Below, in pieces: positions 8,296 to 38,807 of a DNA stretch of 38,807 nt. Made by a program: the position numbers and the translations under genes. Origin of the DNA: a virus; the IMG/VR virus record IMGVR_UViG_3300012931_000042, positions 1 to 38,807 of that record; one strand, written 5' to 3'. Each line of letters starts with the position of its first letter. Within the stretch, counting starts at the first letter, position 1. Below the pieces are notes generated by a model, which searched no databases, was not told the origin of the DNA, and saw only the letters and a list, made by a program, of their open reading frames with translations.

Positions 8296-8310
8296 TTAAA
8301 ATTCGACTTA

Positions 8311-10582: not shown

Positions 10583-12751
10583 ATGTCAAGCTTTTTTGGA
10601 ATAAAACAGCCAATGTCTAGAAACAAAGACACAAAAAAAGGATTGGAAAAAGAGCAGGAAAAGCTAAAATCAATAAAAGAAAACATTGAGAATGCATACG
10701 ATACGTTTTCAGACAATTATAAGCGGTGGCATCGTGGCAAATATTTCGCCATGGTTTCGTCTTTAAGCCCAGAAGAAAAAACAACTCTTCAACGTCTAAA
10801 AAAGCCTCCACTAGAATTCAATATTTCTGAGCCTTTTGTTAATCGCCAATTAGGCGAATTCTATCAGTCCGAGCCTTGTTTCTATGTCTCTTCAGTTGAA
10901 GATGAAGAGAAAATCAACCCAAAAATTTTAGATGTTGTTTCAGGAAATCTACGCCAAATAGAATTTGAATGCCGACAACGAGGCGTTCAACAAGAGGTTT
11001 TTAAGGACCAGGCTTTTGGCGGTTGGGGCGTGATGAAAGTCAGGACGGGCTATATTCATCCAAAAACGTTTCAACAACATATAATTCTAGAACGGCGAGA
11101 ACCAACTATGTGTGGGTTCGATCCTTTTGCGAAAGAAATGACAAAAGGAGATGGAAGTTTTTGTTTCGAGATTTTTGTTCAAAGCAGAAAATTGTTTGAA
11201 GAAGAAAACCCAGATGTTAATTTGAGCGATGTTTCTTTTTCTAGGTCTAGAATCGAAGGGTTTAACTGGTCCTATAAAAACAACAAAGAAGAAATGATCA
11301 GCGTCGTCGATTATTATGAAAAAAGAAGAGAACGCACAAAATTTGTCTTATTAAGCACAAATCAAGCGTTAACCGAAGACGAGTATAAATTATTTATTGA
11401 TACTTGGAATCAAAGCGGGTTTATTGAACCTCCTCCGGTTATAACAGATGAAAAAATTGATTTTCTAGAGACAATATATAGATATAGAGTGATAGAAAAT
11501 CAGATAATTGAATCTGTAAAAACCGATTATACTGGATTACCTCTTGTCTTTTTTGACGGGTCATCTGCAATTGTAAAAAAACAGGATGAAGATGTTGCCC
11601 AATTCACCCGCTCAATGTTGCACAACACGCAAGATCTGCAAAGGCTAAAGAACTTTGCAGGGCAAACGCTCGCGTATGAACTCGAAAACATTAGTCAACA
11701 AAAGTTAAACGTTCCACTCGAAGCAATTCCGACGAACGCGTATAAGGATTTGTATACAGATGTTCAAAAAGCTTCAGTTTTGGTTTACAACCAATTTTTA
11801 AATGGAGATCCAAATGTAAGATTGGATCGTCCAGAAGTCATGCAAAGGCAAGCAATACTTCCTGAAGTGTCAAATACGTTTATTGTTTCTGATCAAATGA
11901 TCCAAAACATTCTGGGGTCGTATGATGCGGCAATGGGGATAAACGGTAATGATGTAAGTGGAAGCGCAATCGCGCTCGGCACATCTCAATCAAACATGGC
12001 CTGTAAGACATATATTATTAATTTTATGCAAGGGTTAAACCGAATTGCAGAACTAATCGTTGGATTGATGCCGAAAATATATTTGAACAAGACTTCTGTA
12101 AAAATACGAAACAGCAAAGGAGATGCAGAAACTATCGATCTCAAAAAAGAAGAGATCGCTTTTAACTTCAAGCCTCGTCAATTAAAGGTAAATGTCGAAG
12201 CCGGAGTTAACTTCGAAATGCAGCAAAAGATGGCTCTTACAGCTTTAATTTCTATCGTTAAAGATCTTCCAAATTCTGAAATATCAAGATTCATTTGCGA
12301 TCGAGGCACATTGTTCTTGCTCAACAATCTATCGATTAAAGATAAAGATCAATTGAAATCGGAATATGAACCGTGGAAGAAAGAACAAGATGAAATAGCT
12401 AGAAAACAAGCTCAAACACAACAAATGGCATTGCAGAATGATCCGAGTTATATCATCGCTCAAAATGATCGCGTGAGATTGCAAATCGAGGAAGAGAAAA
12501 ACAGAGCAAGAAATCAACTCGATGCGGCAAAAATTATTATAGATAAAGAATCCGTTGATACGGACCGAATAAAGGCTATTTCCGGAATAAAAGAAAGCGA
12601 AAGGAAAGGCGTTCTTGCAATGCAGGAATCGGAAACTGACGATTTCGCGAAATCTGTAGATGTTGCGCTAAAAGTTAGTGATCACCTAAACAAAAAAGTC
12701 GAAGAAGAAGAACATGAATGGCAAAAAGAGGAGATGATTGATGGCTATTGA
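10583..12751 (+). CDS. Portal protein, 722 aa, with a long C-terminal charged helical extension
   Basis: Size is close to the P22 portal (about 725 aa). It is adjacent to the scaffold/capsid genes. The C-terminal ~130 aa are E/K/Q-rich and helical, like the P22 barrel. Confidence 0.75.
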   Translation: MSSFFGIKQPMSRNKDTKKGLEKEQEKLKSIKENIENAYDTFSDNYKRWHRGKYFAMVSSLSPEEKTTLQRLKKPPLEFNISEPFVNRQLGEFYQSEPCFYVSSVEDEEKINPKILDVVSGNLRQIEFECRQRGVQQEVFKDQAFGGWGVMKVRTGYIHPKTFQQHIILERREPTMCGFDPFAKEMTKGDGSFCFEIFVQSRKLFEEENPDVNLSDVSFSRSRIEGFNWSYKNNKEEMISVVDYYEKRRERTKFVLLSTNQALTEDEYKLFIDTWNQSGFIEPPPVITDEKIDFLETIYRYRVIENQIIESVKTDYTGLPLVFFDGSSAIVKKQDEDVAQFTRSMLHNTQDLQRLKNFAGQTLAYELENISQQKLNVPLEAIPTNAYKDLYTDVQKASVLVYNQFLNGDPNVRLDRPEVMQRQAILPEVSNTFIVSDQMIQNILGSYDAAMGINGNDVSGSAIALGTSQSNMACKTYIINFMQGLNRIAELIVGLMPKIYLNKTSVKIRNSKGDAETIDLKKEEIAFNFKPRQLKVNVEAGVNFEMQQKMALTALISIVKDLPNSEISRFICDRGTLFLLNNLSIKDKDQLKSEYEPWKKEQDEIARKQAQTQQMALQNDPSYIIAQNDRVRLQIEEEKNRARNQLDAAKIIIDKESVDTDRIKAISGIKESERKGVLAMQESETDDFAKSVDVALKVSDHLNKKVEEEEHEWQKEEMIDGY

Positions 12752-15455
12752 TCCGAAATATATTCCATTAAATTATCTTCAAGAGTTCTTTGTCGACAAG
12801 AGTACAGGATTACCATTGGCAGGCGGATCTGTTGCTTTCTATAAAGACACATCGAGAACAGAACTAAAAGATATTTACACGATATCTGGTGATGGGACAA
12901 GTTATAGCTACGTTCAGCTTCCAAATCCTTGCCCTTTAGGAATTAATGGTGGATTCGTCGACAACACAGGCAATGATACTATGGTCTATGCCTATCCATA
13001 TGACTCTGAAGGCGAAATAGAATTATATTTCTTAAGAGTACTCGACGAAGATGGGGCATTACAGTTTACTCGGCAAGGCGTTCCGAACATTTCGACAGAA
13101 ACGGCGACTACAGATACTGAGTTCACAAATTATATTCCGAACGGACAGTTTTTGATTCACACAGACATCGTTGAAACTCCTACAAATGATGAAGGAGAAA
13201 TAACGAACGCGATAACTGAGATCGCTCAGGGAGGATGGACGTTTGAACGGCCGTCTGCAAGTTCCGCAACGGACTTAGTTACTTTTGAACGCTATGCCAG
13301 CTATGTCGAAAATCCTTCCGGTTCTCCGAGATATTCTTGCAGAATTAGATGCACTAGCCCGAATTTAGGAGATTCATACAAAGGAATTAGGATTAAATTC
13401 GATGATGTAAACAAGTTTTCTTCTGTTTCAAAACAATTTACTTTCGCCTTTGCGGCAATATCCGAAACTGAAGGAACCGAATTAACAATAAACTTGATAA
13501 AGAACTATGGTACTGGGGGAAGTGACGAAACTTCAGAAGTTTTAGCCGTAAAGGCGTTAACAACAGAAATGGTCATCTATAATACTCAATTTATCTTCGG
13601 AGAAAATGAAGACAAAGTAATTGGGGAGGATGACGACGATTATCTTCAATTAGATATTGAAGTCCCACCAACATCTGTCGTCGACGTTTATTTGACGGAT
13701 TTTATTCTGAGCGAAGGTGCTCTAACAATTTCAGCGTTCCCTGAAACTCCGAATTCGGAATTTTCATACCAATCAATTACTGCTCCTGTTCCGGCTCATG
13801 ATGGATCGGATCTTTACTGTTCTTTGCGTCTTACTCCTAGCGGACTTGAGTGGGACCATTCAGACGTTGGTTCTGTAATGACTAAAAGTAGTTCGGAGGT
13901 CCCTGTCGGATATCTATTGGCAGATGGATCGACTTACGAGACAGAACAATATTCTTCCGATGGAATCCCGTATTCGAGATTACAATCCGTCTACTGGCTT
14001 TCTTCATTGAACCTTCCTTTATATGGGACTGGGTTAAATCGATTCACTGCCGCGTACCCCGACACCGGAACATTAGTGCCAGTAATCAACAATTCAGCTG
14101 GTGTTGTTACGGCAACAGCAGATGGATCTATTCCGACAGGGTTCACTTTTGCGACAATTCACAAAGGTGACGCTGGATACGATGTAAAAAGTTATCTAGT
14201 CGGAAACAGTACTTTTGTTATCGAACCAAATTATTCGTATGAACTAACGCAAAGTTCGGCTGGGACGACTCCTTTCACGGTAACAAGCATCCAACATGGA
14301 TACACTCCTTCTGGTCAATATAAGACCGCAGTTGTGGCTTGCGCGACCGGAAGCGTCGCATCGCTTTCCGGAGAAAAGACAATCGATGGAATTTTAACCT
14401 CTACGTCTCGTGTTTTGCTCGTCAACCAATCATCGTCGAAAACAAACGGTATTTATGTTACGAGTTCTGGGTCGTGGACAAGAGCATCGGATGCAGACAC
14501 AGAAGCTGAATTGCTGGCCTGCATTGTTCCAGTTAGCTCTGGAGAAACGTATGGAGGAAAAACATTTTACAACACAGATGAGTCCATTACAGTCGGAACA
14601 ACGGGGATACATTTTTCCTTATATTCAGGGACTGCTATCGGAGCGAAAGAAATAACTCAAGTTCAATGCTCGGCGGCTTCCGAATTAAGCGCCGGGGAAT
14701 ATATGTTATTTTATTCTTATGATCCCGCGACAAATACGGTAATAAAATATTACATATGGATAAAAATAGACGGAGTCGGAACTGATCCGGCCGTTTCAGG
14801 AGCGACTGGAATTGAACTCGATTTATTATCAACCGATTCTGCGTCGACGAATGCTGCCAAATTTGTTTGGGCAATAAATGGATTCAATGTAACAACGATA
14901 ACGGTAACTGCTGGAAGCGCGATTACCGCCGGGTCTTATTTTTTAGTTCACTCTACTGACACCAATTTTTATGTGTTGATGACTGTAAATGGAGTCGGAA
15001 CTGATCCAGAAATCTCGGGCTATATTAAGATTTTATGCCCTATCCTATCGACTGATACTGCAAACGGAGTTGCTCTAAAATTGCAGACCGCAATTAATTC
15101 AAAATATTTCGCAGTGCCGAAATACAACGGAATGTTCTTGCGAGGAGTTGATAATGGAGCTGGAATTGATGTTGACGCTGGCTCTCGATACTCGATGGTC
15201 ACTGGGATCTATGGAGATCAAGTAGGAACGTCTCAACTTGACGCGTTGAAAGCGCATACGCATTGGCTCGCGAACGGAGATCATCCAGAAGATACAAGAT
15301 CAATTTTTGGAGCGAATAGCGCAATTGGGTCAAGTTACACTGTTAGTACTACTACCCCGTGGTCTGCGGGTGTAGTTCCGCTCGTCGAAATCACTGGAAA
15401 CAGCGAACAAGCCTATCCAATAAACATGAGTGTACAATTTTTGATCAAATATTGA
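12741..15455 (+). CDS. Tail fibre / receptor-binding protein with a C-terminal phage tail-collar-like domain, 904 aa
   Basis: ATG at 12741 (the track TTG is at 12738). N-terminus is 'GLPLAGGSVAFYKD'. C-terminus 'NGMFLRGVDNGAGIDVDAGSR...GDQVGTSQLDALKAHTHW' matches the tail-collar motif. There are two ~75-aa internal repeats containing 'NGVGTDP'. Confidence 0.7.
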   Translation: MAIDPKYIPLNYLQEFFVDKSTGLPLAGGSVAFYKDTSRTELKDIYTISGDGTSYSYVQLPNPCPLGINGGFVDNTGNDTMVYAYPYDSEGEIELYFLRVLDEDGALQFTRQGVPNISTETATTDTEFTNYIPNGQFLIHTDIVETPTNDEGEITNAITEIAQGGWTFERPSASSATDLVTFERYASYVENPSGSPRYSCRIRCTSPNLGDSYKGIRIKFDDVNKFSSVSKQFTFAFAAISETEGTELTINLIKNYGTGGSDETSEVLAVKALTTEMVIYNTQFIFGENEDKVIGEDDDDYLQLDIEVPPTSVVDVYLTDFILSEGALTISAFPETPNSEFSYQSITAPVPAHDGSDLYCSLRLTPSGLEWDHSDVGSVMTKSSSEVPVGYLLADGSTYETEQYSSDGIPYSRLQSVYWLSSLNLPLYGTGLNRFTAAYPDTGTLVPVINNSAGVVTATADGSIPTGFTFATIHKGDAGYDVKSYLVGNSTFVIEPNYSYELTQSSAGTTPFTVTSIQHGYTPSGQYKTAVVACATGSVASLSGEKTIDGILTSTSRVLLVNQSSSKTNGIYVTSSGSWTRASDADTEAELLACIVPVSSGETYGGKTFYNTDESITVGTTGIHFSLYSGTAIGAKEITQVQCSAASELSAGEYMLFYSYDPATNTVIKYYIWIKIDGVGTDPAVSGATGIELDLLSTDSASTNAAKFVWAINGFNVTTITVTAGSAITAGSYFLVHSTDTNFYVLMTVNGVGTDPEISGYIKILCPILSTDTANGVALKLQTAINSKYFAVPKYNGMFLRGVDNGAGIDVDAGSRYSMVTGIYGDQVGTSQLDALKAHTHWLANGDHPEDTRSIFGANSAIGSSYTVSTTTPWSAGVVPLVEITGNSEQAYPINMSVQFLIKY

Positions 15456-15464
15456 AGGTGAGAT

Positions 15465-15800
15465 ATGTCATTTGTAATGTTAACGGACACTGGTGGTCGA
15501 AACACGTTTGCGACTCCTTTCAACTGCAAAAAGTATTCGACAACTCTTTCTTTGGGAATTGCTCAAACAATTACTGTCCCCGCTGAATATAGCAGATATA
15601 TTGCGATTTTCGCTTTTGAGCCCGGTGCAATGGTTTGGGTTGCAGATAATGAAACGGCCGCAGTCCCTGGATCTTCTTTTGCGGAGACAACCTCGTTTCT
15701 GAATCCTGTTGCAAAATTAGTAAAAGGCGAAGATGTTTTGAGCCTGATAACGAATAGCGATTCCGCTGAAGTTGGAGTCAGTTTCTATGACATTCCATAA
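15465..15800 (+). CDS. Hypothetical protein, 111 aa (possible fibre accessory/chaperone)
   Basis: Sits between two RBP genes. No motif recognised. Confidence 0.4.
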   Translation: MSFVMLTDTGGRNTFATPFNCKKYSTTLSLGIAQTITVPAEYSRYIAIFAFEPGAMVWVADNETAAVPGSSFAETTSFLNPVAKLVKGEDVLSLITNSDSAEVGVSFYDIP

Positions 15801-15981
15801 CGAAAATTTTCAGGAAACTCCGACAGAAGGATTAACGCAAAGTGTCTTTCACTATAAAGACTCAGGATCTTCTGTGTTCTTGACTCCATTTTTTCTAAAA
15901 GGTATTGGATCAGAGGGCAACGAATATGCCTTAAGCGATTCCGAAACATATTTTTTATGCATGGCTAAGGAAGACGTATGA
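15787..15981 (+). CDS. Hypothetical small protein, 64 aa
   Basis: In-frame ATG at 15787. It shares an ATGA overlap with the downstream tailspike gene start at 15978. Confidence 0.3.
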   Translation: MTFHNENFQETPTEGLTQSVFHYKDSGSSVFLTPFFLKGIGSEGNEYALSDSETYFLCMAKEDV

Positions 15982-18677
15982 CAGTTGAAGGTAAATTATT
16001 TTCGCAATTAACTGAGGCCACAAACATTTCCGGATCTCTTGGAGTCGTTGAAAACGCATCAACAGGTTTAGGGAAGAAATTCACATATTCGAATGATTCG
16101 ACCTTTGCGTCGTCAACAGACGCTATGGTTTCGACGTCTTTAGCTGTCTCAACTGCTTTGGCAGGGAAATCTGATGCAATAACTCCCTCTGAGAATCTGA
16201 TCTACTACGTTAGTGCGGTTTGCGGTGACGATTCAACTGGAGATGGATCATATGCGAAACCGTTTGCAACGTTAATGCATACCATGAGCATGATTACAGA
16301 TTCCGGAAAAAGTAAATGGTATACCATTCAACTGTTATCTGATATCAATGAAGATAACGGTCCTCTACTTGTAAAACCGTTTGTTTGGATCTTTGGTCAA
16401 CAAATCTATAAAACTGAAGTTAACATTTACGATGGAATTAAACCTTCGTCTGGCCACACTGTCACTTCATTAAATGGATTCAAAAACATTTCCTTTAGTG
16501 ACAATGTCTTGTGGGAGCTTCCCGTTGCAACCGAATCGGTTTACAACACTGTTATTTTCGAGAATTGTACTTTTTTTAATCTGCTTACAGCAGAAGGAAG
16601 AGATAGTTCAATAGGTGATTACGTAAGGTTGTATAATTGTGGATTCTCCAATTCAGTCGAACTCTCGAACGTTGTTTGCATCGCTCGTAGTTGCGAATTC
16701 GAATTGGACGTTTCGTTTGTTGACACCGAAACAACGAACAACAAGGCTCAAATAGAACTTTCAAACAGCGTTATAGAAGTAAGCGTTACTGTTGATAATG
16801 CCACGGTAAGTTTAAGAGACATTACATATCCAACGGACCCGGAAGGATTAGATAATTTCACATCTTTAAATACATGTACCATTTCCTCGTTCAGAGGATT
16901 GCCAGCAACAACTGCATGCAATTTTTCGTCCGGATCGACAATTCATTATTATGACAATGCAACAATGATTAGATACGGGTCAACGAACGTTGATTCAGCT
17001 CTCGACGATTTATATTCCCAAATTGCTGGAGTTGTTAATCAATTCTCGAGCGATGGCAAAGCATTCTATGTCGCTAAATTCGGTGACGATCTCGCCGAAC
17101 AGCACTATTACACCCTAGATCAAGGGATTATCTCGTCTTCTTCAGATTTTCCAACAACAGCGGAGGTTGCCGACGGCGACTGTTATATGGTCGCAATCTA
17201 CCAAACTGTCACTGACAATGACTCGTCAAAAACGAACACAGGACAGACCTTTAGCGGACCGGTTCAAATCGCGTGGTACGCGAAAGATTCCAAATGGATA
17301 GAAAGAAATGGATTAACTCCGGAAACCTGCCTTTGTTCTATTGGCGCAGCTCAGTACATTGCGAATTATCTATATCAATACTACGCAAAAGAATATTGCA
17401 TTATATGCCTTGATTCGAGTTCTTATTATTTCGAATCGTACGAAGAAACTTATGTTTCTGTTTTTGCGCCGTTAGCGACGTTCCATATCTACGGTTATTA
17501 TTATTTCAAGCCGAACACTGGAATTATGTCGATCGACAAACTCTATTCGTATAGTTCGAATGGGTTCTACGGAATGTCGACGGCGGCTTCACATTTATAT
17601 GTGAATTTTGCCCAACTTTCGAGCTCGAGTTATAGCGGATTGTTCTTCAAATCCGGATCTGGAGAATTCCATTTGCATGCAAATAAGATTGATGGACAGA
17701 GTACAGCGAATCAGGTTATTTCGTGCCTGCAATCCGGTGGAGATGCTTTCTACGTTTACGCAAACAAAATCATAGGGACAATCTATTCGCTCGGCGATTC
17801 AATCTACGTCAACACATTAGATTTGACCGATATCGTCCAGAATCCTTTGCTCGGAAGCATATACATTAACGGTCCTGCCGGGAAATGGTATAAAAAAGAT
17901 GAGAGGCCTGCTTTAACTCCGCAATGGTTTGAATTCGCGCAAACATCTAGTATTTCTAATGTTTCTTTCAACTTTTCAGCTGAAAGCATTAACGTGTCGA
18001 CAGGAGAAAAGGCAAGAGTTATTTGTCGAACAGCTTTAGATTCGTCCGGCGATCTCGGCAATGTAATGTATGCAATAGAGCAAGGCTCTCAAACTTTCGC
18101 GGGAAAAGTAAGAATATACAAAGACCCCGAAAATACAGTGCATTATTATATTTTGTTCATCGCTACATCGTATAATTTGATCGAGGCCGATACGACGAGC
18201 GGGACAGGATTGAACATTGTTAATGTTTGGAATTCTTGCGGGACAGGAACTGATCCGTCAGGTGTATCGACATACACATTATTGTACGACTCGTCTACCG
18301 ATTCAGGAGCTATGCCGGTAACCGGAACGCTAGCCGGACCGATTTCAGATGTGACTGTGTATTTTGATTTCGTGCGAGGAGAAGGAAAGACGTGCACAAT
18401 GACGTGTAGAGGATTCGATTCGACTGGGAATGGTACGGCAGCAGCAATTTCGTGCTCAAGTCTTGTCCCTGAAATTCTTCGCCCTTCAATCGCTGTCAAC
18501 GGGATTTTTCAATTGAAATCCAACAACTCGTCATATAGTAGTAATCTCAGCATATGCACGATTGATACCTCCGGAAATCTTGTAATGAAGCCGGTAGCCT
18601 CGACAACATATACGATCACGTCAGGATATGCGGTGAATGTACCGTCATTTACAATGACTTGGCAATTGCCGTTTTAA
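15978..18677 (+). CDS. Tailspike / receptor-binding protein, 899 aa
   Basis: N-terminal 'EGKLFSQLTEATNISGS...KKFTYS' parallels the 775-aa fibre N-terminus. The rest is long and Ser/Thr/Asn/Tyr-rich, typical of beta-helix tailspikes. Confidence 0.65.
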   Translation: MTVEGKLFSQLTEATNISGSLGVVENASTGLGKKFTYSNDSTFASSTDAMVSTSLAVSTALAGKSDAITPSENLIYYVSAVCGDDSTGDGSYAKPFATLMHTMSMITDSGKSKWYTIQLLSDINEDNGPLLVKPFVWIFGQQIYKTEVNIYDGIKPSSGHTVTSLNGFKNISFSDNVLWELPVATESVYNTVIFENCTFFNLLTAEGRDSSIGDYVRLYNCGFSNSVELSNVVCIARSCEFELDVSFVDTETTNNKAQIELSNSVIEVSVTVDNATVSLRDITYPTDPEGLDNFTSLNTCTISSFRGLPATTACNFSSGSTIHYYDNATMIRYGSTNVDSALDDLYSQIAGVVNQFSSDGKAFYVAKFGDDLAEQHYYTLDQGIISSSSDFPTTAEVADGDCYMVAIYQTVTDNDSSKTNTGQTFSGPVQIAWYAKDSKWIERNGLTPETCLCSIGAAQYIANYLYQYYAKEYCIICLDSSSYYFESYEETYVSVFAPLATFHIYGYYYFKPNTGIMSIDKLYSYSSNGFYGMSTAASHLYVNFAQLSSSSYSGLFFKSGSGEFHLHANKIDGQSTANQVISCLQSGGDAFYVYANKIIGTIYSLGDSIYVNTLDLTDIVQNPLLGSIYINGPAGKWYKKDERPALTPQWFEFAQTSSISNVSFNFSAESINVSTGEKARVICRTALDSSGDLGNVMYAIEQGSQTFAGKVRIYKDPENTVHYYILFIATSYNLIEADTTSGTGLNIVNVWNSCGTGTDPSGVSTYTLLYDSSTDSGAMPVTGTLAGPISDVTVYFDFVRGEGKTCTMTCRGFDSTGNGTAAAISCSSLVPEILRPSIAVNGIFQLKSNNSSYSSNLSICTIDTSGNLVMKPVASTTYTITSGYAVNVPSFTMTWQLPF

Positions 18678-18683
18678 CTGCAT

Positions 18684-18768
18684 GGAGGGGTTCCCGAGCG
18701 GCCAAAGGGGACAGACTGTAAATCTGTTGGCGTTGCCTTCGTAGGTTCAAATCCTACTCCCTCCACCA
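18684..18768 (+). tRNA. tRNA-Tyr(GTA): tRNA-Tyr (anticodon GTA), class II with a long variable arm and encoded CCA
   Basis: Acceptor GGAGGGG/TCCCTCC. Anticodon stem acaga/tctgt with loop cTGTAaa. T-arm gtagg-ttcaaat-cctac. Discriminator A followed by CCA. Confidence 0.9.
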
Positions 18769-24287: not shown

Positions 24288-24824
24288 TTATTTGAAAGTC
24301 AAGCATGAATATATGCGATTTAACCATCCGAGTAAAAATTGTCGATTGTGAGGTTCTGTTGCGATTCTTCGATAACGATCAGTCAACAGACAAAGATAAA
24401 TATAGGAGAGAGGGTTCTCCTTGCAGGAATTTATGGTTGCCATAGTCTTCGCCCCTATTATCCCATCAGAGTCTAATCCGCAAGCAGGGAGCAGGACTAA
24501 GCATGCCTTCTGCAAAAGAAGGTTGGCCGTATAGGCACCCATGTTTACAGCACATGAAAAGCATAAAAAACCAAGTTTTTTGGGGAATTTTTCATAGTTA
24601 TTTTTCTCCCAAAACTCTTCGAAATAAATCTTTTTTGCGTTTTCGCGCGTCAGGCAAATGATCTCATTTTCTGGCATGTCTCTTTTATAGTACGTGCCGA
24701 GGAATCTCTTGGAGAGCCCGAACTTCGTAGGCCCTCCAGCATCTCCTTCTATTTTGCAGAAGATTCCTTCCTGTTCCATAAGAAGAGCGAAGGCGTTTTC
24801 AAAAAACGAAGAGTAGACCACCAT
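24288..24824 (-). CDS. Endolysin, GH108-type lysozyme with a C-terminal PG_binding_3-like domain, 178 aa
   Basis: N-terminal 'LLMEQEGIFCKIEGDAGGPTKFGLS' fits E-x-G...D-x-GG-x-T-x-x-G. C-terminal 'DSDGIIGAKTMATIN' fits the peptidoglycan-binding motif. Confidence 0.7.
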   Translation of the reverse strand: MVVYSSFFENAFALLMEQEGIFCKIEGDAGGPTKFGLSKRFLGTYYKRDMPENEIICLTRENAKKIYFEEFWEKNNYEKFPKKLGFLCFSCAVNMGAYTANLLLQKACLVLLPACGLDSDGIIGAKTMATINSCKENPLSYIYLCLLTDRYRRIATEPHNRQFLLGWLNRIYSCLTFK

Positions 24825-25045
24825 TATCGATTCCCTTTTGTTTCCGAGTCAGATTCCGAGTCCGAACTTAAATTGAATGTCGAATTGAAAATAGTTGGAT
24901 CTAATTCGTCCCGACGAATTACTACGTCGATCGGAGCGTCGAATTGAATTTTAACCTGTGATCCTTGGATAGATTTTACTGTTATCTTGATGGTGTCATC
25001 AATCCAAATTGATTGTCCTACCTTTCTTCCTAATGTTAACCCCAT
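24824..25045 (-). CDS. csrA: CsrA/RsmA-family RNA-binding regulator homologue, 73 aa with an acidic Ser-rich tail
   Basis: 'MGLTLGRKVGQSIWIDDTIKITVKSIQGSQVKIQFDAPIDVVIRRDEL' aligns along its length with CsrA '[47 protein letters not shown]'. Its TAA overlaps the endolysin ATG (TAATG). Confidence 0.75.
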   Translation of the reverse strand: MGLTLGRKVGQSIWIDDTIKITVKSIQGSQVKIQFDAPIDVVIRRDELDPTIFNSTFNLSSDSESDSETKGNR

Positions 25046-32111: not shown

Positions 32112-32291
32112 CTAATTATATGTTCTTACGTTTCGTCTTTCAATCCATTTTTTTACATCTTCTATGTCATATCTAATGGATTTTCCAATCCTTTTATAGT
32201 TCGGTACCTTCCCTTCTTTCCTATATCTTCGAAGAGTTACGGCCGATTTCTTTATCATTTTAGCAAAGTCAACTTCTTTTATTAGTTCCAT
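32112..32291 (-). CDS. Excisionase/AlpA-family HTH DNA-binding protein, 59 aa (not in the ORF track)
   Basis: Hand translation MELIKEVDFAKMIKKSAVTLRRYRKEGKVPNYKRIGKSIRYDIEDVKKWIERRNVRTYN. RBS is ggagaaaatc. It shows the typical 'tl.R....G..P....iG...rY....v..Wi' pattern. Confidence 0.6.
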   Translation of the reverse strand: MELIKEVDFAKMIKKSAVTLRRYRKEGKVPNYKRIGKSIRYDIEDVKKWIERRNVRTYN

Positions 32292-32300
32292 GATTTTCTC

Positions 32301-33152
32301 CTACATGTTCTCTTCGTATTGCGCGATTGTGTAAAAAATTATGTTTCTAAAGACGTTTTCTAACTTTTTTATTTGCTCTGTTTTTTCGGAAATTTCGCCG
32401 AACAAAGAAAGAACAAACTTTTCTATTTGATCATAATTGTCCGATGCGATCGATCTCGCTATTTCCTTAATTTCTTCGTCTTCGTCCGCAGATAAATCGC
32501 AAATTTTTTCCCAGACATCTTTTGAAAGAGATGCATCAATGCATTCATGGTACCAACGGGCTTTAAGCATTTCAGAGACGCAAAAAATAAACGTTAATTT
32601 TTTTGTCTTTGTAGAAAGTTTTTCGCCGAATATTCTTTGCCTTTCTTCATTGTTGTTCGCTGATGCCCGGCCATACGCTTCTATTGCAGAATGATTCTCT
32701 TCGTTTTCTTTTTCATCTTTTAAAGCTTGAATTATTTCTGGAGTCATTTCTTTTTTTTCAATTCTACTGAGGATTTCAACGACCGTTTCCTTTATTGATT
32801 TATTTTCATTTTTCAATAAAAAAAGCAATTTTTCTGTAATTTCTTTTCCCGAAAAAAATCTCAACGCTCTTATCGCTCTCTCTTTCTCGAATTTTTCTGA
32901 TGTATCGCATTGATTTAATACATTTTTTAGTATTTTTTTTGTCAAAAAACGTGACGGAAATTTTTCGACACATGCTAAAATGTGTTCATTTGATTCTTTG
33001 TTGTTTTTCTCGGCGATTTGGTCTACTAAATCGGCATATGGTAATTTTTCAAAGTCTTCATAGTGGCAATTAACAATATATTTCAAGACTATATTGTGTT
33101 CTTCTGCATTGTTACTTTTTGAAAAGTTCACTAACTCACAGAACACGCTCAT
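32301..33152 (-). CDS. Diverged HEAT-like repeat protein, 283 aa
   Basis: Degenerate units such as 'ERAIRALRFFSGKEITEKLLFLLKNENKSIKETVVEILSRIEKKEMTPEIIQALKDE'. RBS is aggagataaaaATG. Confidence 0.55.
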   Translation of the reverse strand: MSVFCELVNFSKSNNAEEHNIVLKYIVNCHYEDFEKLPYADLVDQIAEKNNKESNEHILACVEKFPSRFLTKKILKNVLNQCDTSEKFEKERAIRALRFFSGKEITEKLLFLLKNENKSIKETVVEILSRIEKKEMTPEIIQALKDEKENEENHSAIEAYGRASANNNEERQRIFGEKLSTKTKKLTFIFCVSEMLKARWYHECIDASLSKDVWEKICDLSADEDEEIKEIARSIASDNYDQIEKFVLSLFGEISEKTEQIKKLENVFRNIIFYTIAQYEENM

Positions 33153-33212: not shown

Positions 33213-33923
33213 TCATTCTTCTCTAAAATGCGGCGTCGCCCAAATTATTTTGTCAAAATTGACTTTTCTCCCATCCAAGCGCTCTTTCATTCTTTTTTGT
33301 TGAGCTTTTAGCTTGATTTTTTTTAAAGCTTCTTTTGCATCACTTCTAACCCATTCATGTTTGTCTTTAGAAAGCTTAATCAGAACTTGAATGACTTCAG
33401 GAGTAGCTGCTTTCTCTCCTAAGTTTCCTAAAGCTTCTGTTGCATCACTTCTCACCCATGCAGTTTCATCTCCACAGAACTTAATCAGAGTTTGAATGAC
33501 TTCTGGTGTTGCTGCTTTCCCTCCTAAGCGTCCTAAAGCCCGTACAGCATATCCTCTGATCCCTTCATCCTCGTCTTCGCAGAGCTTAATCAGAGCTTGA
33601 ATAACTTCAGGAGTTGCTGCTTTCCCTCCTAGGTTTCCCAAAGAACACGTGGCACTTTTTCTCACCCATTCATCCTGATCTCCAGTCAGTTTCACCAGAA
33701 CTTGAATAACCTCAGGAGTTGCTTTCTCTCCTAAGTTTCCCAAAGCCCAAAAGGCATATCCTCTGAACAATTCATCCTCGTCTTCGCAGAGCTTAATCAG
33801 AGCTTGAACTACCTCTGGTGTAGCTGCTTTCTCTCCTAGGTTTCCCAAAGCCCTTGCAGCATTCTCCTTTGTTTGTTTGTCTGAGCTTTCGCAATCTTTT
33901 AAAAGTTCGCTAATTGGTTTCAT
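33213..33923 (-). CDS. PBS-lyase/HEAT-like repeat protein H6, 236 aa (6 units plus a basic tail)
   Basis: Cap 'MKPISELLKDCES' followed by repeated 'ATPEVIQxLIKLxxDxDEWVRxxAxxALGNLGEKA'. Confidence 0.8.
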   Translation of the reverse strand: MKPISELLKDCESSDKQTKENAARALGNLGEKAATPEVVQALIKLCEDEDELFRGYAFWALGNLGEKATPEVIQVLVKLTGDQDEWVRKSATCSLGNLGGKAATPEVIQALIKLCEDEDEGIRGYAVRALGRLGGKAATPEVIQTLIKFCGDETAWVRSDATEALGNLGEKAATPEVIQVLIKLSKDKHEWVRSDAKEALKKIKLKAQQKRMKERLDGRKVNFDKIIWATPHFREE

Positions 33924-34437
33924 TTTTCTCTCCTAAGTATCCTAAAGATTCTGTTGCATTCCATCTAACCCATTCATCTTTGTCTCCCGAGAGCTTAATC
34001 AGAACTTGAATCACCTCAGGTGTGGCTTTTTCGCCTAATTCTCCTAAAGCCCACGCCGAGCTTCCTCTAACCAATCTACCCTTATCTCCCGAGAGTTTAA
34101 CCAGAGTTTGAATGACTTCAGGAGTTGTTGCTTTCTCTCCTAAAATTCCCAAAGCATCTACAGCAAATTTTCTCACCCATTCATACTGATCTTCAGCGAG
34201 TTTAATCAGAGCTTGAATCACCTCAGGAGTAGCTGCTTTCTCTCCTAAGTTTCCTAAAGCCCAAGCGGAATATCTTCTCGCCGACCTATCCTCGTCTCCC
34301 GAAAGTTTCACCAGAGCTTGAATGACTTCAGGTGTAGCTGCTTTTTCTCCTAACTCTCCTAAAGCTAGCGCGGATTCGATTCGCTCTGATCTGTCCATGC
34401 TTTCGCAAGCTTTTAAAAGTTCGTTAATTGTTTTCAT
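33910..34437 (-). CDS. PBS-lyase/HEAT-like repeat protein H5, 175 aa (5 units)
   Basis: Cap 'MKTINELLKACES'. It ends 'LGEKNETN' with a 14-nt overlap onto H6. Confidence 0.8.
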   Translation of the reverse strand: MKTINELLKACESMDRSERIESALALGELGEKAATPEVIQALVKLSGDEDRSARRYSAWALGNLGEKAATPEVIQALIKLAEDQYEWVRKFAVDALGILGEKATTPEVIQTLVKLSGDKGRLVRGSSAWALGELGEKATPEVIQVLIKLSGDKDEWVRWNATESLGYLGEKNETN

Positions 34438-35296
34438 TTTTCTCTCCTAAGTATCCTAAAGATCCTGTTGCGTTGCTTCTAATCCATTCATCCTTGTCTT
34501 CTGAAAGTTTAATCAGAGCTTGAATAACCTCAGGTGTGGCTTTTTCGCCTAAGTTCCCTAAAGCCCACGCGGCACTTTTTCTCACCCATTCATCTTGGTC
34601 TCCAGATAGTTTAATCAGAGCTTGAATTACCTCAGGAGTTGCCGCTTTTTCGCCTAAGTTCCCTAAAGCCCACGCGGCACTTTTTCTCACCCATTCATCT
34701 TGGTCTCCAGATAGTTTAATCAGAGTTTGAATTACCTCAGGAGTTGCCGCTTTTTCGCCTAAGTTCCCTAAAGCAAATGCGGCACTTTTTCTCACCCATT
34801 CATCTTGGTCTCCAGATAGTTTAATCAGAGTTTGAATTACCTCAGGAATAGTTTGAATTACTTCAGGTATGGCTTTCTTTCCTAGGTTCCCTAAAGCAAA
34901 TGCAGAATTTTCTCTGACGAATTAATTTTGATCTCCAGCGAGTTTAATCAGAACTTGAATCACTTCAGGAGTTGCGGCTTTTTCTCCTAAGCGTCCTAAA
35001 GCTCCTGTTGCGTGGCTTTGAACCCATCCATTATAGTCTCCAGTCAGTTTCACCAGAGTTTGAATGACTTCAGGAGTCGCTGCTTTTTCTCCTAAGTGCC
35101 CTAAAGCCAATGCGGAAACTGTTCGAACACATGCATCTTTGTCTTTAGAAAGCTTAATCAGAGCTTGAATAACTTCGGGTGTGGCCGCTTTTTCTCCTAT
35201 CGTTGCAAGTGTCCACGCGGCTTTCCACTTTATTTTTTTGTCTGAGCTTTCGCAAGCTTTTAAAAGCTCGTTTAATCTCTCGCTAATTGTTTTCAT
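34424..35296 (-). pseudogene. HEAT-like repeat gene H4 (8 units) interrupted by one in-frame TAA at 34922-34924. Otherwise one 290-codon frame.
   Basis: Hand translation across the stop reads ...IKLAGDQN*FVRENSAFALGNLGKKAIPEVIQTIPEVIQTLIKLSGDQDEW... and stays in frame. Paralogue H3 has TAC (Tyr) at this codon. The track splits it into 34922..35347 and 34424..34795. Confidence 0.6.
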
Positions 35297-35820
35297 TTTT
35301 CCACTCCTAAATATTCCAAAGCTTCTGTTGCAACTCTTCTCACCCATCCTTTCTGGTCTTCCGATAGCTTAATCAGAGCTTGAATAACCTCAGGTGTGGC
35401 TTTTTCTCCTAAGTTCCCTAAAGCAAATGCGGTTCTTTCTCTGACGAAGTAATTTTGATCTCCAGCGAGTTTAATCAGAACTTGAATCACCTCAGGAGTT
35501 GCAGCTTTTTCTCCTAAGTGTCCTAAAGCTCCTGTTGCGTGGCTTTGAACCCATCCATTATAGTCTCCAGTCAGTTTAACCAGAGTTTGAATGACTTCAG
35601 GTGTTGCTGCTTTTTCTCCTAAGAGTCCTAAAGCTAATGCGGCAATTGTTCTCACACATGCATCTTTGTCTTTAGATTGCTTAATCAGAGCTTGAATCAC
35701 TTCAGGTGTGGCCGCTTTCTCTCCTATCATTCCAAGTGTCCACGCGGCTTTCCACTTTATTTTTTTGTCTGAGCTTTCGCAATTTTTTAAAAGTTCGTTT
35801 AATATCTCGATAATTTCCAT
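35293..35820 (-). CDS. PBS-lyase/HEAT-like repeat protein H3, 175 aa (5 units)
   Basis: Cap 'MEIIEILNELLKNCES'. Near-identical to the first four units of H4. It shares an ATGA overlap with the H4 start. Confidence 0.8.
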   Translation of the reverse strand: MEIIEILNELLKNCESSDKKIKWKAAWTLGMIGEKAATPEVIQALIKQSKDKDACVRTIAALALGLLGEKAATPEVIQTLVKLTGDYNGWVQSHATGALGHLGEKAATPEVIQVLIKLAGDQNYFVRERTAFALGNLGEKATPEVIQALIKLSEDQKGWVRRVATEALEYLGVEK

Positions 35821-35841
35821 TTTTTTCTCCTAAATTTAATT

Positions 35842-36066
35842 TTACAAGATCAATTGTATTGCTTCTTCCCCCAATCGTCTCAAAGCGAACATGGCTTTTA
35901 TTTGAATTCTGTCGGAGTTTTGATCTTCGCAGAGCTTAATCAGAGCTTGAACTACCTCTGGTGTAGCTGCTTTCTCTCCTAATCTCCCTAAATTCCGCAC
36001 AGCATTTCTGCGTTTTATACCACTTTTGCTTTCGCAATTTTTTAAAATCTCGTTAATTGTTTTCAT
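35842..36066 (-). CDS. Short HEAT-like repeat protein H2, 74 aa (2 units)
   Basis: Cap 'MKTINEILKNCES'. 14-nt overlap with the H1 stop. Confidence 0.65.
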   Translation of the reverse strand: MKTINEILKNCESKSGIKRRNAVRNLGRLGEKAATPEVVQALIKLCEDQNSDRIQIKAMFALRRLGEEAIQLIL

Positions 36067-37024
36067 TTTTCTCTCCTAAATTTTCTAAAGCATCCGCGGC
36101 ACTTTTTCTAACCCATTCATCTTTGTCTCCCGAAAGTTTAATCAGAACTTGAATCACCTCAGGAGTTGCGGCTTTTTCTCCTAATCTCCCTAAAGCCCAC
36201 GCGGACTCGCTTCTAACCCATTCATCTTGGTCTCCCGATAGTTTCACCAGAACTTGAATCACTTCAGGAGTTGCGGCTTTTTCTCCTAATCTCCCTAAAG
36301 CCCACGCGGACTCGCTTCTAACCAATTCATCCTTGTCTTCGGAAAGTTTAATTAGAGTTTGAATCACCTCAGGAGTTGCAGCTTTTTCTCTAAAGTGTCC
36401 TAAAGCTTCTGCGGAATTTGTTCGAACTTTTTCATCTTTGTCTCCCGAAAGTTTAATCAGAGTTTGAATCACCTCAGGAGTTGCAGCTTTTTCTCCTAAG
36501 TGTTCAAATGCCCATGTAGCTTTTTCTCTGACGATTTTATTCCGGTCTCCCGAGAGCTTAATCAGAACTTGAATCACTTCAGGTGTGGTCGCTTTTTCTC
36601 CTAAGTCTCCTAAAGCTTCTGCAGCACTTCCTCTAGCTTTTTTGTTCTTGTGTTCAGCGAGTTTGCTCAGAATTCGAATCACCTCTTGTGTTGTTGCTTT
36701 TTCTACCAATTTCGCCAAAGCTTCTGCTGCAGAAGAAATTACGAGAGCAGATTCAGTATCGTCTTCGCATCGCATAATCAGAGCTTGAATCACCTCAGGT
36801 GTGGCTTTCTCTCCTAATCTCCCTAAAGCTCGCGCAGCGTGGATTCGAACGTAGAAGTCTTCAAAGTCTTGATCTTCCGAGAGCTTAATCAGAATTTGAA
36901 TAACCTCAGGAGTAGCTGATTCTTTTGCTAAGTTTTCTATTGCTTTCGCAGCTTTAATCCGAGCTGATCTGTCCCCTCTTTCGAATCTTTCAATGTTTCT
37001 TTCTAATGTTTTTTGAACGTTCAT
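36053..37024 (-). CDS. PBS-lyase/HEAT-like repeat protein H1, 323 aa (9 units)
   Basis: RBS ggagagatatcATG. The units become progressively closer to the consensus toward the C-terminus. It ends 'LGEKNENN'. Confidence 0.8.
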   Translation of the reverse strand: MNVQKTLERNIERFERGDRSARIKAAKAIENLAKESATPEVIQILIKLSEDQDFEDFYVRIHAARALGRLGEKATPEVIQALIMRCEDDTESALVISSAAEALAKLVEKATTQEVIRILSKLAEHKNKKARGSAAEALGDLGEKATTPEVIQVLIKLSGDRNKIVREKATWAFEHLGEKAATPEVIQTLIKLSGDKDEKVRTNSAEALGHFREKAATPEVIQTLIKLSEDKDELVRSESAWALGRLGEKAATPEVIQVLVKLSGDQDEWVRSESAWALGRLGEKAATPEVIQVLIKLSGDKDEWVRKSAADALENLGEKNENN

Positions 37025-37064
37025 GATATCTCTCCATTTTTCTGATTAATCACATTCAGTCAAC

Positions 37065-37090
37065 GATCACATAGTATCACGTATGATCAC
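37065..37090. promoter_or_regulatory. Three (G/T)ATCAC repeats phased at exactly 10 bp, upstream of the HEAT operon (candidate operator overlapping a weak leftward promoter)
   Basis: GATCAC at 37065, TATCAC at 37075 and GATCAC at 37085. On the minus strand, TTGCAA (37098-37093), a 16-nt spacer and TACTAT overlap them. Confidence 0.3.
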
Positions 37091-37220
37091 GTTTGCAATA
37101 GTTGACGCATGTTTTTTTGAACTGATAGAGAGATATGTGTTGACTTTAAAAAGAAACGCGCTTCTGTTTCTGTAATTAAGGTTTCACGTGGAACACACCG
37201 TTGATTAGCTTTCACTACTC

Positions 37221-37248
37221 TTGACACGTCAAAGTTATGCGCTATAAT
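37221..37248 (+). promoter_or_regulatory. Near-consensus sigma70-type promoter TTGACA-N16-TATAAT
   Basis: TTGACA at 37221-37226 and TATAAT at 37243-37248, read directly. The -35 lies inside the inverted repeat CTTGAC-AC-GTCAAG. Confidence 0.6.
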
Positions 37249-37254
37249 TCATTT

Positions 37255-37323
37255 GTTTTTTTTACACAGAAAAAACGAAAGTCAGGTAAAGAGCGTATTC
37301 AAAACTGAAGACGCTCTTTTTTT
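37255..37323 (+). ncRNA. Candidate ~70-nt small RNA or terminated leader (promoter to intrinsic terminator)
   Basis: The predicted start lies about 7 nt after the -10 element. The transcript ends at the hairpin and U-run at 37288-37323. No convincing ORF lies within it. Confidence 0.35.
37288..37323 (+). terminator. Intrinsic terminator
   Basis: Stem aaagagcgtattca / tgaagacgctcttt (13 bp, one A-G mismatch) with loop aaac. It runs into a T7 tract at 37317-37323. Confidence 0.7.
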
Positions 37324-37339
37324 AGCAGAAGGAAAAAGT

Positions 37340-37477
37340 ATGTCGAGAAAGGTCTTTTCTTCCTTTATTTGCAGAGTTGTTGACTTTTTCTTGGCTGTTT
37401 ATTTTGGGGCCTGCTTGTTAGGGATTTCGATTTTTGGTTTTGACATTTTTTTAAAAACGCTTTCTGCTTTTTTTTAA
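37340..37477 (+). CDS. Possible small hydrophobic protein, 45 aa
   Basis: agaaggaaaaagtATG RBS. MSRKVFSSFICRVVDFFLAVYFGACLLGISIFGFDIFLKTLSAFF has one clear TM segment. It is convergent with the virion gene. Confidence 0.35.
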   Translation: MSRKVFSSFICRVVDFFLAVYFGACLLGISIFGFDIFLKTLSAFF

Positions 37478-37482
37478 AAAGA

Positions 37483-38807
37483 TCAGTCTGAAAGCAATCT
37501 AGCAAGAATAGTCTTCGCACTCGTTTCTGTCGCTTTTCCAGAAGATCTTCCTAATCTTGCCAGTATTTCAGCTAGCTTGTCAGCTCTAGAAGGACTAACA
37601 GCTGCGCGCGCAACATAATCAGACATTTTCGGTCCGATCTCGCCGAGTCCGAGTGCGAGCAGAGATGCAGCGCTCGTCGGAGTTAATCCACTTGTTAGCC
37701 CTGAGGCCGCTCCGGCTCCTGCCAAAATTTTTCCAAGTTTGCTACCGATTACTCTGTTGTACAGACTATGTGCTTGCGTGAGTTTCGAGCTCGCGATATC
37801 TTGCATTTCTTTGATCGCTGCTAGACTTTTTGGGGCGACAAGATCGAGCATCTCTTTCTCTGCGAGACGCCCAGGCCGGCGCAAAAGACCGGTTAGTGTT
37901 GTATTCTCTGGAGAGCCGAGAGCGAGATATTCAAGATTTTGGCGCAGTTTCGGATTCGCTGTTTTAAAAATTTCTTTGATTGAAGATCTTTCCTTCGGAT
38001 TTTTAAACGCGCTCAAAAATCTTGGCAATGTCACGTCTTGAGTGACCGGCCCTTCTTTCTCTTCTGTTATTGCTCTTATTGCTCTAGAGCCTCTGTAAGG
38101 ATTGATGTATTTGTCGAAGTATTCTTGATTTAACGCTCTGAATTTTTCTCCGAACCCTTTCTCTGGCACATATGTATCTAATGTGTCAGAGATATCTGAT
38201 CCTAGTTTTTTTAACATATAGTTTATTTTTTGTATCTTGTCTCGACTGTTCGGATCTTTTGCTGAAATATAACGTCTTTCAGCCGATAGCTGTTTGTGAA
38301 GCTCATGAGCGCTTTCCAAGGTCGGAGTCTTCAAATATTTGTGCAATCTTGTTTTGGTTTCTAAAGGCAAATCTTTTGTTAAGTCAGAACCTAGATCGCT
38401 GTAGACTCGTTTCTTTGCCGTCAATTCAGAAAGAGTGTCTTTTGGGATTATCTTTTGTAGCTTTTCTGGAGATACTCCACGGAACATTTTGGACAAACTC
38501 TCGTCATATTTTGTTGTTTCTTGCATCAGATCACTTCCGAGCGTATTGCTTATCATTTCTTTTTTTTTCAACTCAGGAGTGAAGATCTCGTTATATCTTT
38601 TTCCGAATTCTTCTCTTGTGTTCTTGCCGGCTTCAGCTACAAATCCTTTCGATTCTTTTAAAACGTCTTCTTGTGTTCCGCTGTAATTTTTATACAACGA
38701 CTGAGCTTTTTCCGCGATTAGTTTTAACGGACTGTTCTTTAAAGCGCCCAAAACTGCTCCTCCAACTCCGCCCGCAACTCTTAACGGAGCTTCAATTGCC
38801 GCAGAGC
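37483..38807 (-). CDS. C-terminal part of the same ~603-aa internal virion/ejection protein
   Basis: Track ORF 37483..38751 extended in frame to the window end. It is the last gene of the leftward structural operon and has a Gly/Ala-rich hydrophobic C-terminal segment. Confidence 0.6.
   Translation of the reverse strand, partial: SAAIEAPLRVAGGVGGAVLGALKNSPLKLIAEKAQSLYKNYSGTQEDVLKESKGFVAEAGKNTREEFGKRYNEIFTPELKKKEMISNTLGSDLMQETTKYDESLSKMFRGVSPEKLQKIIPKDTLSELTAKKRVYSDLGSDLTKDLPLETKTRLHKYLKTPTLESAHELHKQLSAERRYISAKDPNSRDKIQKINYMLKKLGSDISDTLDTYVPEKGFGEKFRALNQEYFDKYINPYRGSRAIRAITEEKEGPVTQDVTLPRFLSAFKNPKERSSIKEIFKTANPKLRQNLEYLALGSPENTTLTGLLRRPGRLAEKEMLDLVAPKSLAAIKEMQDIASSKLTQAHSLYNRVIGSKLGKILAGAGAASGLTSGLTPTSAASLLALGLGEIGPKMSDYVARAAVSPSRADKLAEILARLGRSSGKATETSAKTILARLLSD
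38685..38807. repeat. Terminal direct repeat (right copy)
   Basis: Same 123 nt as bases 1-123. Confidence 0.95.

Follow-up and report, generated by a model that had tools for sequence, protein, structure and literature searches.

An expanding phage operon of HEAT-repeat genes with apparent kinship to NACHT receptor sensor domains

The IMG/VR virus record IMGVR_UViG_3300012931_000042 is a stretch of 38,807 nucleotides (nt), hereafter the window, whose gene content is that of a circularly assembled tailed phage, a P22-like podophage. The two ends of the window are identical over 123 nt (1-123 = 38685-38807), which marks a circular or terminally redundant assembly, so the unique circular length is 38,684 bp, not 38,807. 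On the minus strand, positions 33213-37024 hold six head-to-tail genes built from one HEAT-type repeat, g1 to g6, which take up 3812 of the 38,684 bp, or 9.9% of the genome (12.2% including the adjacent g7), in line with the share of about 10% given in a preliminary description made from the letters alone. On the comparisons set out below, this array is an accessory, expanding and selectively maintained operon of stand-alone HEAT solenoids, built from the unit type found in NLR sensor domains. The genes of the array and those that follow it are listed here, with lengths in amino acids (aa).

36053-37024, minus strand: g1, 323 aa, nine units, HEAT-only with a divergent N-terminal cap; Pfam HEAT_2 8.6e-50, HEAT_PBS 1e-31
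35842-36066, minus strand: g2, 74 aa, two units (the cap and one degenerate unit), overlapping g1 by 14 nt
35293-35820, minus strand: g3, 175 aa, five units, the first four of them recently copied into g4
34424-35296, minus strand: g4, 290 aa, eight units, with an in-frame TAA in this window and a 7-aa partial duplication
33910-34437, minus strand: g5, 175 aa, five units, overlapping g4 by 14 nt
33213-33923, minus strand: g6, 236 aa, six units and a basic 35-aa C-terminal tail, the last gene of the array
32301-33152, minus strand: g7, 283 aa, all-helical, with one TPEIIQAL motif
32112-32291, minus strand: 59-aa HTH_17/excisionase (Xis)-like DNA-binding protein directly 3' of g7; Pfam HTH_17, phrog_66 8.5e-10

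All six array genes score above the Pfam gathering thresholds, with HEAT_2 at 28.4-167 bits (against 27.7), HEAT_PBS at 32-106 bits (against 20.9) and E-values from 2e-06 to 8.6e-50, as the preliminary description had expected of searches for HEAT/ARM-type profiles; the short g2 reaches 32.4 bits for HEAT_PBS and 28.4 bits for HEAT_2. Tandem Repeats Finder reports 105-nt (35-aa) periodic arrays across 33343-36704 with scores of 264-798. Counting the caps, there are 35 units (9+2+5+8+5+6), each of 34-35 aa apart from two of 37 aa, which bears out the earlier estimate. Five of the six open reading frames stand exactly as first drawn on the minus strand, but 34424-35296 is interrupted by the in-frame TAA. 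The cap that was said to open every gene, LLKxCES, is found in g2-g6, where the g3 and g4 versions contain additional residues, but g1 opens with MNVQKTLERNIERFERGD; the cap, TINELLKxCES...R..A...LG.LGEK, is itself a shortened unit. What had been presented as a seventh, diverged member, g7, turned out to be only weakly HEAT-like: its HEAT_2 score of 27.2 bits lies just below the 27.7 cut-off, hhalign aligns it to the HEAT profile over 62 columns at a probability of just 53%, its PADLOC match is OloA-like (5.7e-08), and its single-sequence AlphaFold2 (AF2) model is unreliable (predicted local distance difference test, pLDDT, 49). If g7 is related to HEAT proteins, the relationship is a distant one. 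The array proteins contain nothing but the repeats: domains for enzymatic activity, secretion or membrane insertion are absent.

An exhaustive phmmer search of 1.84 billion representatives returned 45,689 relatives, none above 49% identity. The seven top hits that were checked all combine a NACHT NTPase with a long HEAT domain at the C-terminus, and some of them begin with a TIR or ART domain. A NACHT profile matches 98 of the 150 top relatives, and when proteins are ranked by their most similar single unit, 20 of the first 25 are NACHT proteins; identity to NACHT-HEAT proteins goes up to 49% over ~150 aa and to 22 of 35 residues within a single unit. The phage unit, GEKAATPEVIQALIKLSGDKDEWVRKSAAWALGNLG, has the 35-aa pattern GE(K/A)AATPEV...VRxxAAxALGxxG in common with the relatives P0160, P0163, P0154 and P0174, which reads GEAAATPEVLxSLLAALGDxxxxVRxSAAEALGxMG in P0160 and P0163, GEKAATNEVINGLVKALNDExxxVRxxACEALxxIG in P0154 and ATPEVIQALLTTLNDKDEWVRRNTADALGQLG in P0174. 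The named sources of the NACHT-HEAT relatives are metagenomes and bdelloid rotifers. These relatives were missed by a word-indexed protein search with g5, which yielded just 26 HEAT proteins, distant ones of 257 aa with 30-38% identity. As far as sequence similarity can tell, the closest relatives of the array proteins are thus the C-terminal HEAT sensor domains of NACHT (NLR-like) STAND NTPases. Among NLR proteins, the NACHT-HEAT combination is an established architecture (PMC12258605). In bacteria, NACHT proteins act in defence against phage (bioRxiv 10.1101/2022.07.19.500537), and it is with the repeat domain at their C-terminus that STAND/Avs receptors bind capsid, portal or terminase proteins (PMC13581612). 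This kinship would shift the likeliest role of the array towards interference with host immunity. The receptor parts themselves are missing: Pfam detects no NACHT module in g1-g7 and lists none for any other phage gene, the sole P-loop protein in these lists being Sak4/AAA_24, and g1-g7 have no effector domain (TIR, ART, nuclease etc.).

Other families of HEAT proteins suggest other roles. The repeat was first described as PBS-lyase HEAT-like, which is right as to the HEAT_PBS Pfam match, but the lyase label is only a Pfam name. Taken literally, the name would make the array a set of auxiliary metabolic genes of a cyanophage, encoding a phycobilin lyase (CpcE/F-type) or NblB-type phycobilisome degradation, and NCBIfam does report low scores for CpcE (89.8 bits) and NblB (65 bits). 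These fall so far short of the cut-offs (330 and 300), as do CpcF (44 against 220) and CpeY (37 against 600), that all four identities were rejected; partner genes are lacking, and the relatives of the phage and its endolysin point to Proteobacteria, not cyanobacteria. We give this explanation practically no credence. Another possibility is a poly-immunity locus of the Imm-HEAT type, in which the proteins would be antitoxin-like inhibitors of polymorphic (Rhs, type VI secretion system) or abortive-infection toxins and the paralogues would cover different toxins. HEAT-only immunity proteins (Imm-HEAT, YibA/PRK09687-like) and poly-immunity genes in tandem arrays have been described (PMC3482391, PMC7400221), and the array has partial PRK09687 matches of up to 78 bits. 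However, the PRK09687 cut-off is 275 bits, no Rhs, PAAR or toxin gene occurs in the Pfam lists of the genome, and the closest relatives are NACHT-linked rather than Rhs-linked, all of which makes such a locus improbable.

The units combine a fixed framework with a variable surface. In the 33-aa core, TPEVIQaLIKLsgDkdewVRssAawALGnLGEK, helix A (TPEVIQxLIKL) and the VR/A/ALG/LGEK framework are near-invariant, and entropy exceeds 1.8 bits solely at unit positions 15-18, 21, 22, 25 and 29, which lie in the loop before helix B and along one side of that helix. Framework codons have a synonymous divergence (pS) of 0.42 and a nonsynonymous divergence (pN) of 0.13, whereas at variable codons the values are 0.56 and 0.46. 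The framework is kept by purifying selection, not by recent copying alone, and the surface positions evolve almost freely. Pairwise identity between units ranges from <60% to 99%. Units 1-3 of g3 and units 1-3 of g4 form a segmental duplicate, 89-97% identical, in which most replacements fall on variable positions; at the nucleotide level g3 and the N-terminal half of g4 are 92% identical (pS 0.18, pN 0.046), and the resulting pN/pS of 0.25 in so recent a duplicate indicates that the copies are maintained. Units 4-6 of g4 (34541-34849) are a fresh triplication, 96-99% identical. The array is a birth-and-death family that is still expanding through duplication of units and of whole gene segments.

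Structural comparison places this variation on a surface of known function. The AF2 model of g5 (pLDDT 96.5, predicted template modelling score 0.91) has ten helices in five hairpins, and a Foldseek search of the PDB with this model ranks artificial alphaRep binders best (TM 0.81, root-mean-square deviation 1.5-1.6 A over 166 residues, with 1.6 A for 3ltj). By phmmer against the PDB, alphaRep proteins are likewise the closest solved structures to g1 (E 4.8e-49). The array proteins are thus predicted to fold as alphaRep-like right-handed alpha-solenoids, and the solenoid repeat of HEAT_2/HEAT_PBS type named in the preliminary description agrees with Pfam, AF2 and Foldseek alike. In alphaRep libraries, positions 18, 19, 22, 23, 26 and 30 are randomised and make the target contacts (PMC3754942); in the g1 alignment, phage unit positions 17, 18, 21, 22, 25 and 29 align with these six. 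Given this positional match, the phage family varies on the surface known to bind targets in the alphaRep fold. The suggestion that the array is a panel of binders fits this pattern.

The array was documented from short-read assemblies only, and an assembly artefact, in which repeat copy number was inflated or a host fragment was chimerically joined to a phage contig, has to be weighed. The same genome is present as ENA contig ERZ27227667:k141_51895 (38,825 nt, with a 141-nt end overlap and a different break point), and the window and this contig both yield the 38,684-bp circle and differ by a single base within the array. The longest exact repeat, 82 nt, is shorter than the k of 141. Synonymous changes between units are abundant, the GC content of the array (0.41) lies inside the range of the genome, and an independent Logan contig (SRR6436070, k=31) confirms the junction of g7 and g6. 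The Logan contig breaks inside g6 at ~33426, as the repeats would predict, and the ENA contig ends at 34480-34620, within the three near-identical g4 units, whose copy number is the least certain detail of the array. No other part of the genome deviates as much in dinucleotide signature as the array (delta* 144), but the tail-fibre region reaches 132, and this signature was set aside as uninformative for a 35-fold repeat. Against the host-fragment chimera that the preliminary description had allowed for stand the flanks: on both sides there are phage genes, and their ribosome-binding sites are of the kind seen in the array. The array is probably real, and we consider an artefact very unlikely.

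The single base by which the two assemblies differ is the in-frame stop of g4. At 34922-34924 the window reads TAA (GDQN*FVRE), whereas in the ENA contig the codon is TAC (Tyr), which g3 also has at the paralogous site. Since the twin differs at this one base only, the TAA is either a very recent, segregating nonsense allele or an error in the consensus, rather than the mark of an old pseudogene. The genome encodes a tRNA-Tyr (anticodon GTA) at 18684-18768 on the plus strand, directly after an 899-aa tail-fibre-like gene; being an ordinary, non-suppressor tRNA, it was rejected as a suppressor of the g4 stop.

The genes of the array are joined by a recurrent module:

33923-33937, minus strand: conserved junction TTAGGAGAGAAAAATG; the same module at 34437-34451 and 36066-36080, variants at 35820-35834 and 35296-35310

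Four genes start with TTAGGAGA(G/A)AAAAATG, and the variant at g4 is TTAGGAGTGGAAAAATG. In the last unit of a gene, the codons for L-G-E-K (read as GGAGAGAAA) double as the Shine-Dalgarno sequence of the next gene, whose ATG lies in the +1 frame, so that the six genes appear to be translationally coupled; at three junctions the genes overlap by 14 nt. GGAGR motifs reach a density of 13.3 per kb in the array, compared with 3.3 per kb genome-wide on the same strand. A programmed frameshift that would fuse genes at the A-rich GAGAAAAATG (into the +1 frame of the next gene) was considered and set aside, coupling being the simpler account of a strong Shine-Dalgarno sequence followed by an ATG. The codons of the repeat can thus themselves supply ribosome-binding sites, which would allow a solenoid gene to be split into, or built from, separate genes, and we infer that any unit boundary may be one or two mutations from becoming a gene boundary.

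The rest of the genome encodes a P22-like portal (PF16510, 1.9e-64), large terminase, major head protein, scaffold and gp10-like 'Phage_stabilise' protein, together with a 'DNA ejection' protein, Sak4, RusA, HU, a GH108 endolysin and a CsrA homologue. A whole-window megablast against 50,697 GenBank phages gave no match, the portal is only ~23% identical to its counterparts in known phages, for the most part podophages of Vibrio, Shewanella and Thalassomonas, and a large-terminase scan of IMG/VR returned matches of 21% identity only and no relative. There is no integrase or repressor in the Pfam lists of the genome. Just 3' of the major capsid gene, 8300-8372 is a palindromic 20-nt tandem repeat of ~3.5 copies (CCAAAACCGAATTCGGTTTTG) that may form a terminating or stabilising hairpin or else be bound by a protein, and 5705-5934, inside the 775-aa tail gene, is an 81-nt (27-aa) tandem repeat of 2.8 copies with 87% identity. 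The features around the array and the further locus discussed below are as follows.

Minus strand, in order: scaffold, major capsid protein, 246 aa, 775 aa, 235 aa, gp10-like protein of 513 aa, 88 aa, 213 aa, 465 aa, 603 aa
Minus strand, after the 603-aa gene: 458-nt spacer, g1-g6, g7, HTH_17/Xis-like gene
37483-38807, minus strand: 3' part of the 603-aa gene (5' part at 1-610), directly 5' of the spacer
37025-37482, no strand assigned: spacer of 458 nt between the ejection-protein gene and g1
24824-25045, minus strand: CsrA homologue beside the GH108/PG_binding_3 endolysin

The 123-nt end overlap lies within the 603-aa gene, which the window therefore splits in two. In this neighbourhood the 513-aa protein matches PF11134/phrog_578 and the 213-aa protein a PHROG for 'DNA ejection' (2e-10); a homologue search with the 603-aa protein found itself only, and an ejection role for its gene is putative, suggested by gene order and size. 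We take the 213/465/603-aa series to mirror P22 gp7/gp20/gp16; in P22, accessory genes (sieA, immI) lie behind gene 16.

Transcription of the array has to be judged from the spacer, in which no canonical terminator or good promoter is predicted on the minus strand. The preliminary description had taken the array for the promoter-proximal block of a leftward, probably early non-structural unit, but the array begins just 458 nt beyond the late structural and ejection genes and runs in their direction; with neither a canonical terminator nor a good minus-strand promoter predicted in between, 'early' is unsupported and co-transcription with the late genes is at least as likely. The one strong signal in the spacer is on the plus strand, a sigma-70 promoter that matches at 12 of 12 positions (37221-37248, TTGACA-16-TATAAT), followed by two hairpins and a canonical intrinsic terminator ending at ~37325, with a minimum free energy of -23.6 (z -3.8) for the hairpin/terminator fold. 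This predicts a plus-strand RNA of ~70 nt (37255-37325) antisense to a read-through transcript entering the array; Rfam holds no match for it, and a 74-aa plus-strand open reading frame at 37253-37477 is probably not a gene. Just 5' of the g1 ribosome-binding site, 37036-37095 on the minus strand has four GTGAT motifs 10-16 nt apart (acGTGATcatacGTGATactatGTGATcgttgactgaatGTGATtaatc), a cluster that could be an operator.

Co-directionality with the gp10-like, 213-, 465- and 603-aa genes, across a spacer that seems to offer neither a terminator nor a convincing minus-strand promoter, would also be expected if the array proteins were virion-associated, either as late-operon products packaged and ejected with the DNA or as assembly chaperones or scaffolds for the ejection proteins. 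Yet the array is missing altogether from relatives whose structural and ejection genes are the same, which argues against a part of the conserved virion, the proteins match no PHROG structural family, and six paralogues with a hypervariable surface would be unexpected in a structural role. On balance we find a virion role unlikely.

The comparison with related phages rests on the gp10-like protein, which has 1,171 homologues, the best non-self ones 45-53% identical and many on 35-42-kb contigs. Within 10 kb of the ejection genes, none of three related metagenomic contigs and 12 genome loci has a HEAT gene or a paralogue array; in all of these, tail-fibre genes follow the ejection genes. The array is therefore a lineage-specific accessory module, absent from all phage relatives examined. 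In the related phages L008, L011 and a JGI contig, the genes after the ejection genes are tail-fibre genes of ~900, 115, 60 and ~1000 aa on the same strand, whereas in this phage the tail-fibre genes (10583-18677) lie after the portal gene on the opposite strand; with the tail-fibre genes relocated, the HEAT array sits at a rearrangement junction. In the non-structural region of L008 (ERZ1649853 NODE_105), positions 3272-3895 encode a 207-aa Sel1-repeat protein, so that this phage family has a further accessory gene of the alpha-solenoid kind.

Beyond these relatives, the array has almost no viral parallel. A tblastn search of 50,697 phage genomes with g1 gave one weak match, BFVD two structural matches at E <=0.001, and PHROGs no domain-level match to the HEAT genes. 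Neither g5 nor a degenerate DNA pattern for TPEVIQxL[IV]KL found anything in IMG/VR; the pattern also had no occurrence in GTDB species genomes, and its one match in JGI metagenomes was a chance match that proved to be an ankyrin protein. The array is thus as unusual for a phage as the preliminary description had supposed.

The host can be placed only tentatively. The gp10-like family has homologues at 41-46% identity in a Rickettsiella genome, a Coxiellaceae metagenome-assembled genome (MAG) and low-GC Gammaproteobacteria MAGs ('Gammaproteobacteria 35_23'), but also in bins labelled 'Asgard', 'Saccharibacteria' and 'Flavobacterium', so the MAG labels are inconsistent. Among 72,556 plasmids, the only relatives of the phage CsrA are CsrA paralogues on 13 Legionella and two Marinobacter conjugative plasmids, at 38-48% identity. 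The endolysin is of a type typical of phages of Gram-negative hosts. Together these clues weakly suggest a low-GC gammaproteobacterial host, possibly Legionellales-like. They bear on a further explanation, in which the array proteins would be host take-over factors or, if the host is an intracellular, Legionellales-like gammaproteobacterium, eukaryote-directed repeat effectors carried by the phage. The Rickettsiella, Coxiellaceae and low-GC Gammaproteobacteria homologues, the Legionella share of the CsrA matches (13 of 15 records) and the Sel1-repeat gene of the one related phage count in favour of such effectors, and the ankyrin genes of phage WO and of sponge 'ankyphages' offer a precedent (bioRxiv 10.1101/608950, PMC9203015). 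The host assignment is weak, however, given the low identities and unreliable MAG binning; stable lysogenic conversion is not evident, as there is no integrase or repressor in the Pfam lists, and no secretion signal was identified. We judge this explanation unlikely.

Our own reading is that the array proteins are putative protein binders in phage-host conflict during infection, which we advance tentatively, as a real possibility. In outline, the HEAT proteins would bind other proteins through their hypervariable face while infection proceeds. A more specific version, the mechanism that we favour though we still regard it as doubtful, is that they are decoys or mimics of NACHT-HEAT sensors, a self-diversifying repertoire of sensor copies lacking effectors. 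As decoys, such copies might mask phage trigger proteins (or host co-factors) from a host NACHT-HEAT receptor or, alternatively, poison the assembly or oligomerisation of the receptor. The site behind the structural and ejection genes would then deliver them alongside the usual NLR/Avs triggers (capsid, portal, terminase).

Several observations count against the binder and decoy proposals. Just over a third of the top relatives (52 of 150) have no NACHT domain, and bit-score ranking favours long, many-repeat proteins. With a best identity to NACHT-HEAT proteins of only 49%, nothing points to the repeats having been captured recently from a receptor of the host. The PADLOC hits are generic local matches to HEAT segments of longer profiles (for example positions 836-947 of 1972), in the families HEAT-ARM_XIII, HEAT_CxxC_PD-DExK, DRT UG22 and Olokun OloA, and none of the nuclease, reverse transcriptase or partner genes of PADLOC HEAT systems is present. 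The pN/pS ratio at the variable sites is below 1, and a hypervariable surface on a conserved framework is typical of repeat proteins generally. The whole array is, moreover, documented in one metagenome assembly and this window only.

To our knowledge, little is known of phage escape from NLR-like (STAND, Avs, bNACHT) receptors beyond mutation of the trigger. If the decoy proposal is right, the array would be a directly testable candidate for decoy-based counter-defence, and a bacterial-virus counterpart of viral decoy receptors and viral NLR homologues. Viral solenoid families as such are already known; what is new here is a viral multigene family of apparent solenoid binders built from NLR-type HEAT repeats.

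Compared with known systems, the array is furthest from the phycobilin lyases and NblB, with which it has in common the generic HEAT_PBS repeat; its NCBIfam scores lie below the equivalog cut-offs by a factor of 3-5 and it has no cyanobacterial context. Imm-HEAT/YibA proteins are likewise stand-alone and HEAT-only, act by binding an antagonist, and paralogous tandem arrays are known for immunity genes (PMC3482391, PMC7400221). The phage family differs in scoring below the family cut-off (78 against 275 bits) and in having no linked toxin gene. The ankyrin families of poxviruses and giant viruses are viral multigene families of solenoid repeats too, likewise accessory, lineage-specific and amplified, whose products are presumed to bind host proteins. 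The same goes for those of Wolbachia phage WO and the sponge 'ankyphages' (bioRxiv 10.1101/608950, PMC9203015). The differences are the repeat type, ankyrin as opposed to HEAT, the arrangement of the phage genes in a tight, seemingly translationally coupled operon of a 38.7-kb podophage, and the target, the array showing no evidence of a eukaryotic one. With the NACHT/NLR-like STAND NTPases it shares the 35-aa GE(K/A)AATPEV unit with VRxxAAxALGxxG, conserved inside and variable on the surface; theirs is one domain of 10-20 units, encoded by cells and attached to NTPase and effector modules, whereas the phage has six short genes of 2-9 units and neither module. The alphaRep proteins have the same VRxxAAxALGxIG framework and vary at the same concave-face positions, to which the phage adds positions 15-16. 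Their period is 31 aa, whereas the phage units of 34-35 aa carry a 4-residue insertion (ATPE) in the inter-repeat turn, and, compared with alphaRep and its source, the natural thermostable HEAT-like repeats (Mth187-type, HEAT_PBS), the phage family is natural, multi-gene and phage-borne. Should the decoy idea fail, the array would still be a natural equivalent of an engineered alphaRep library, with an invariant framework and the same six variable positions.

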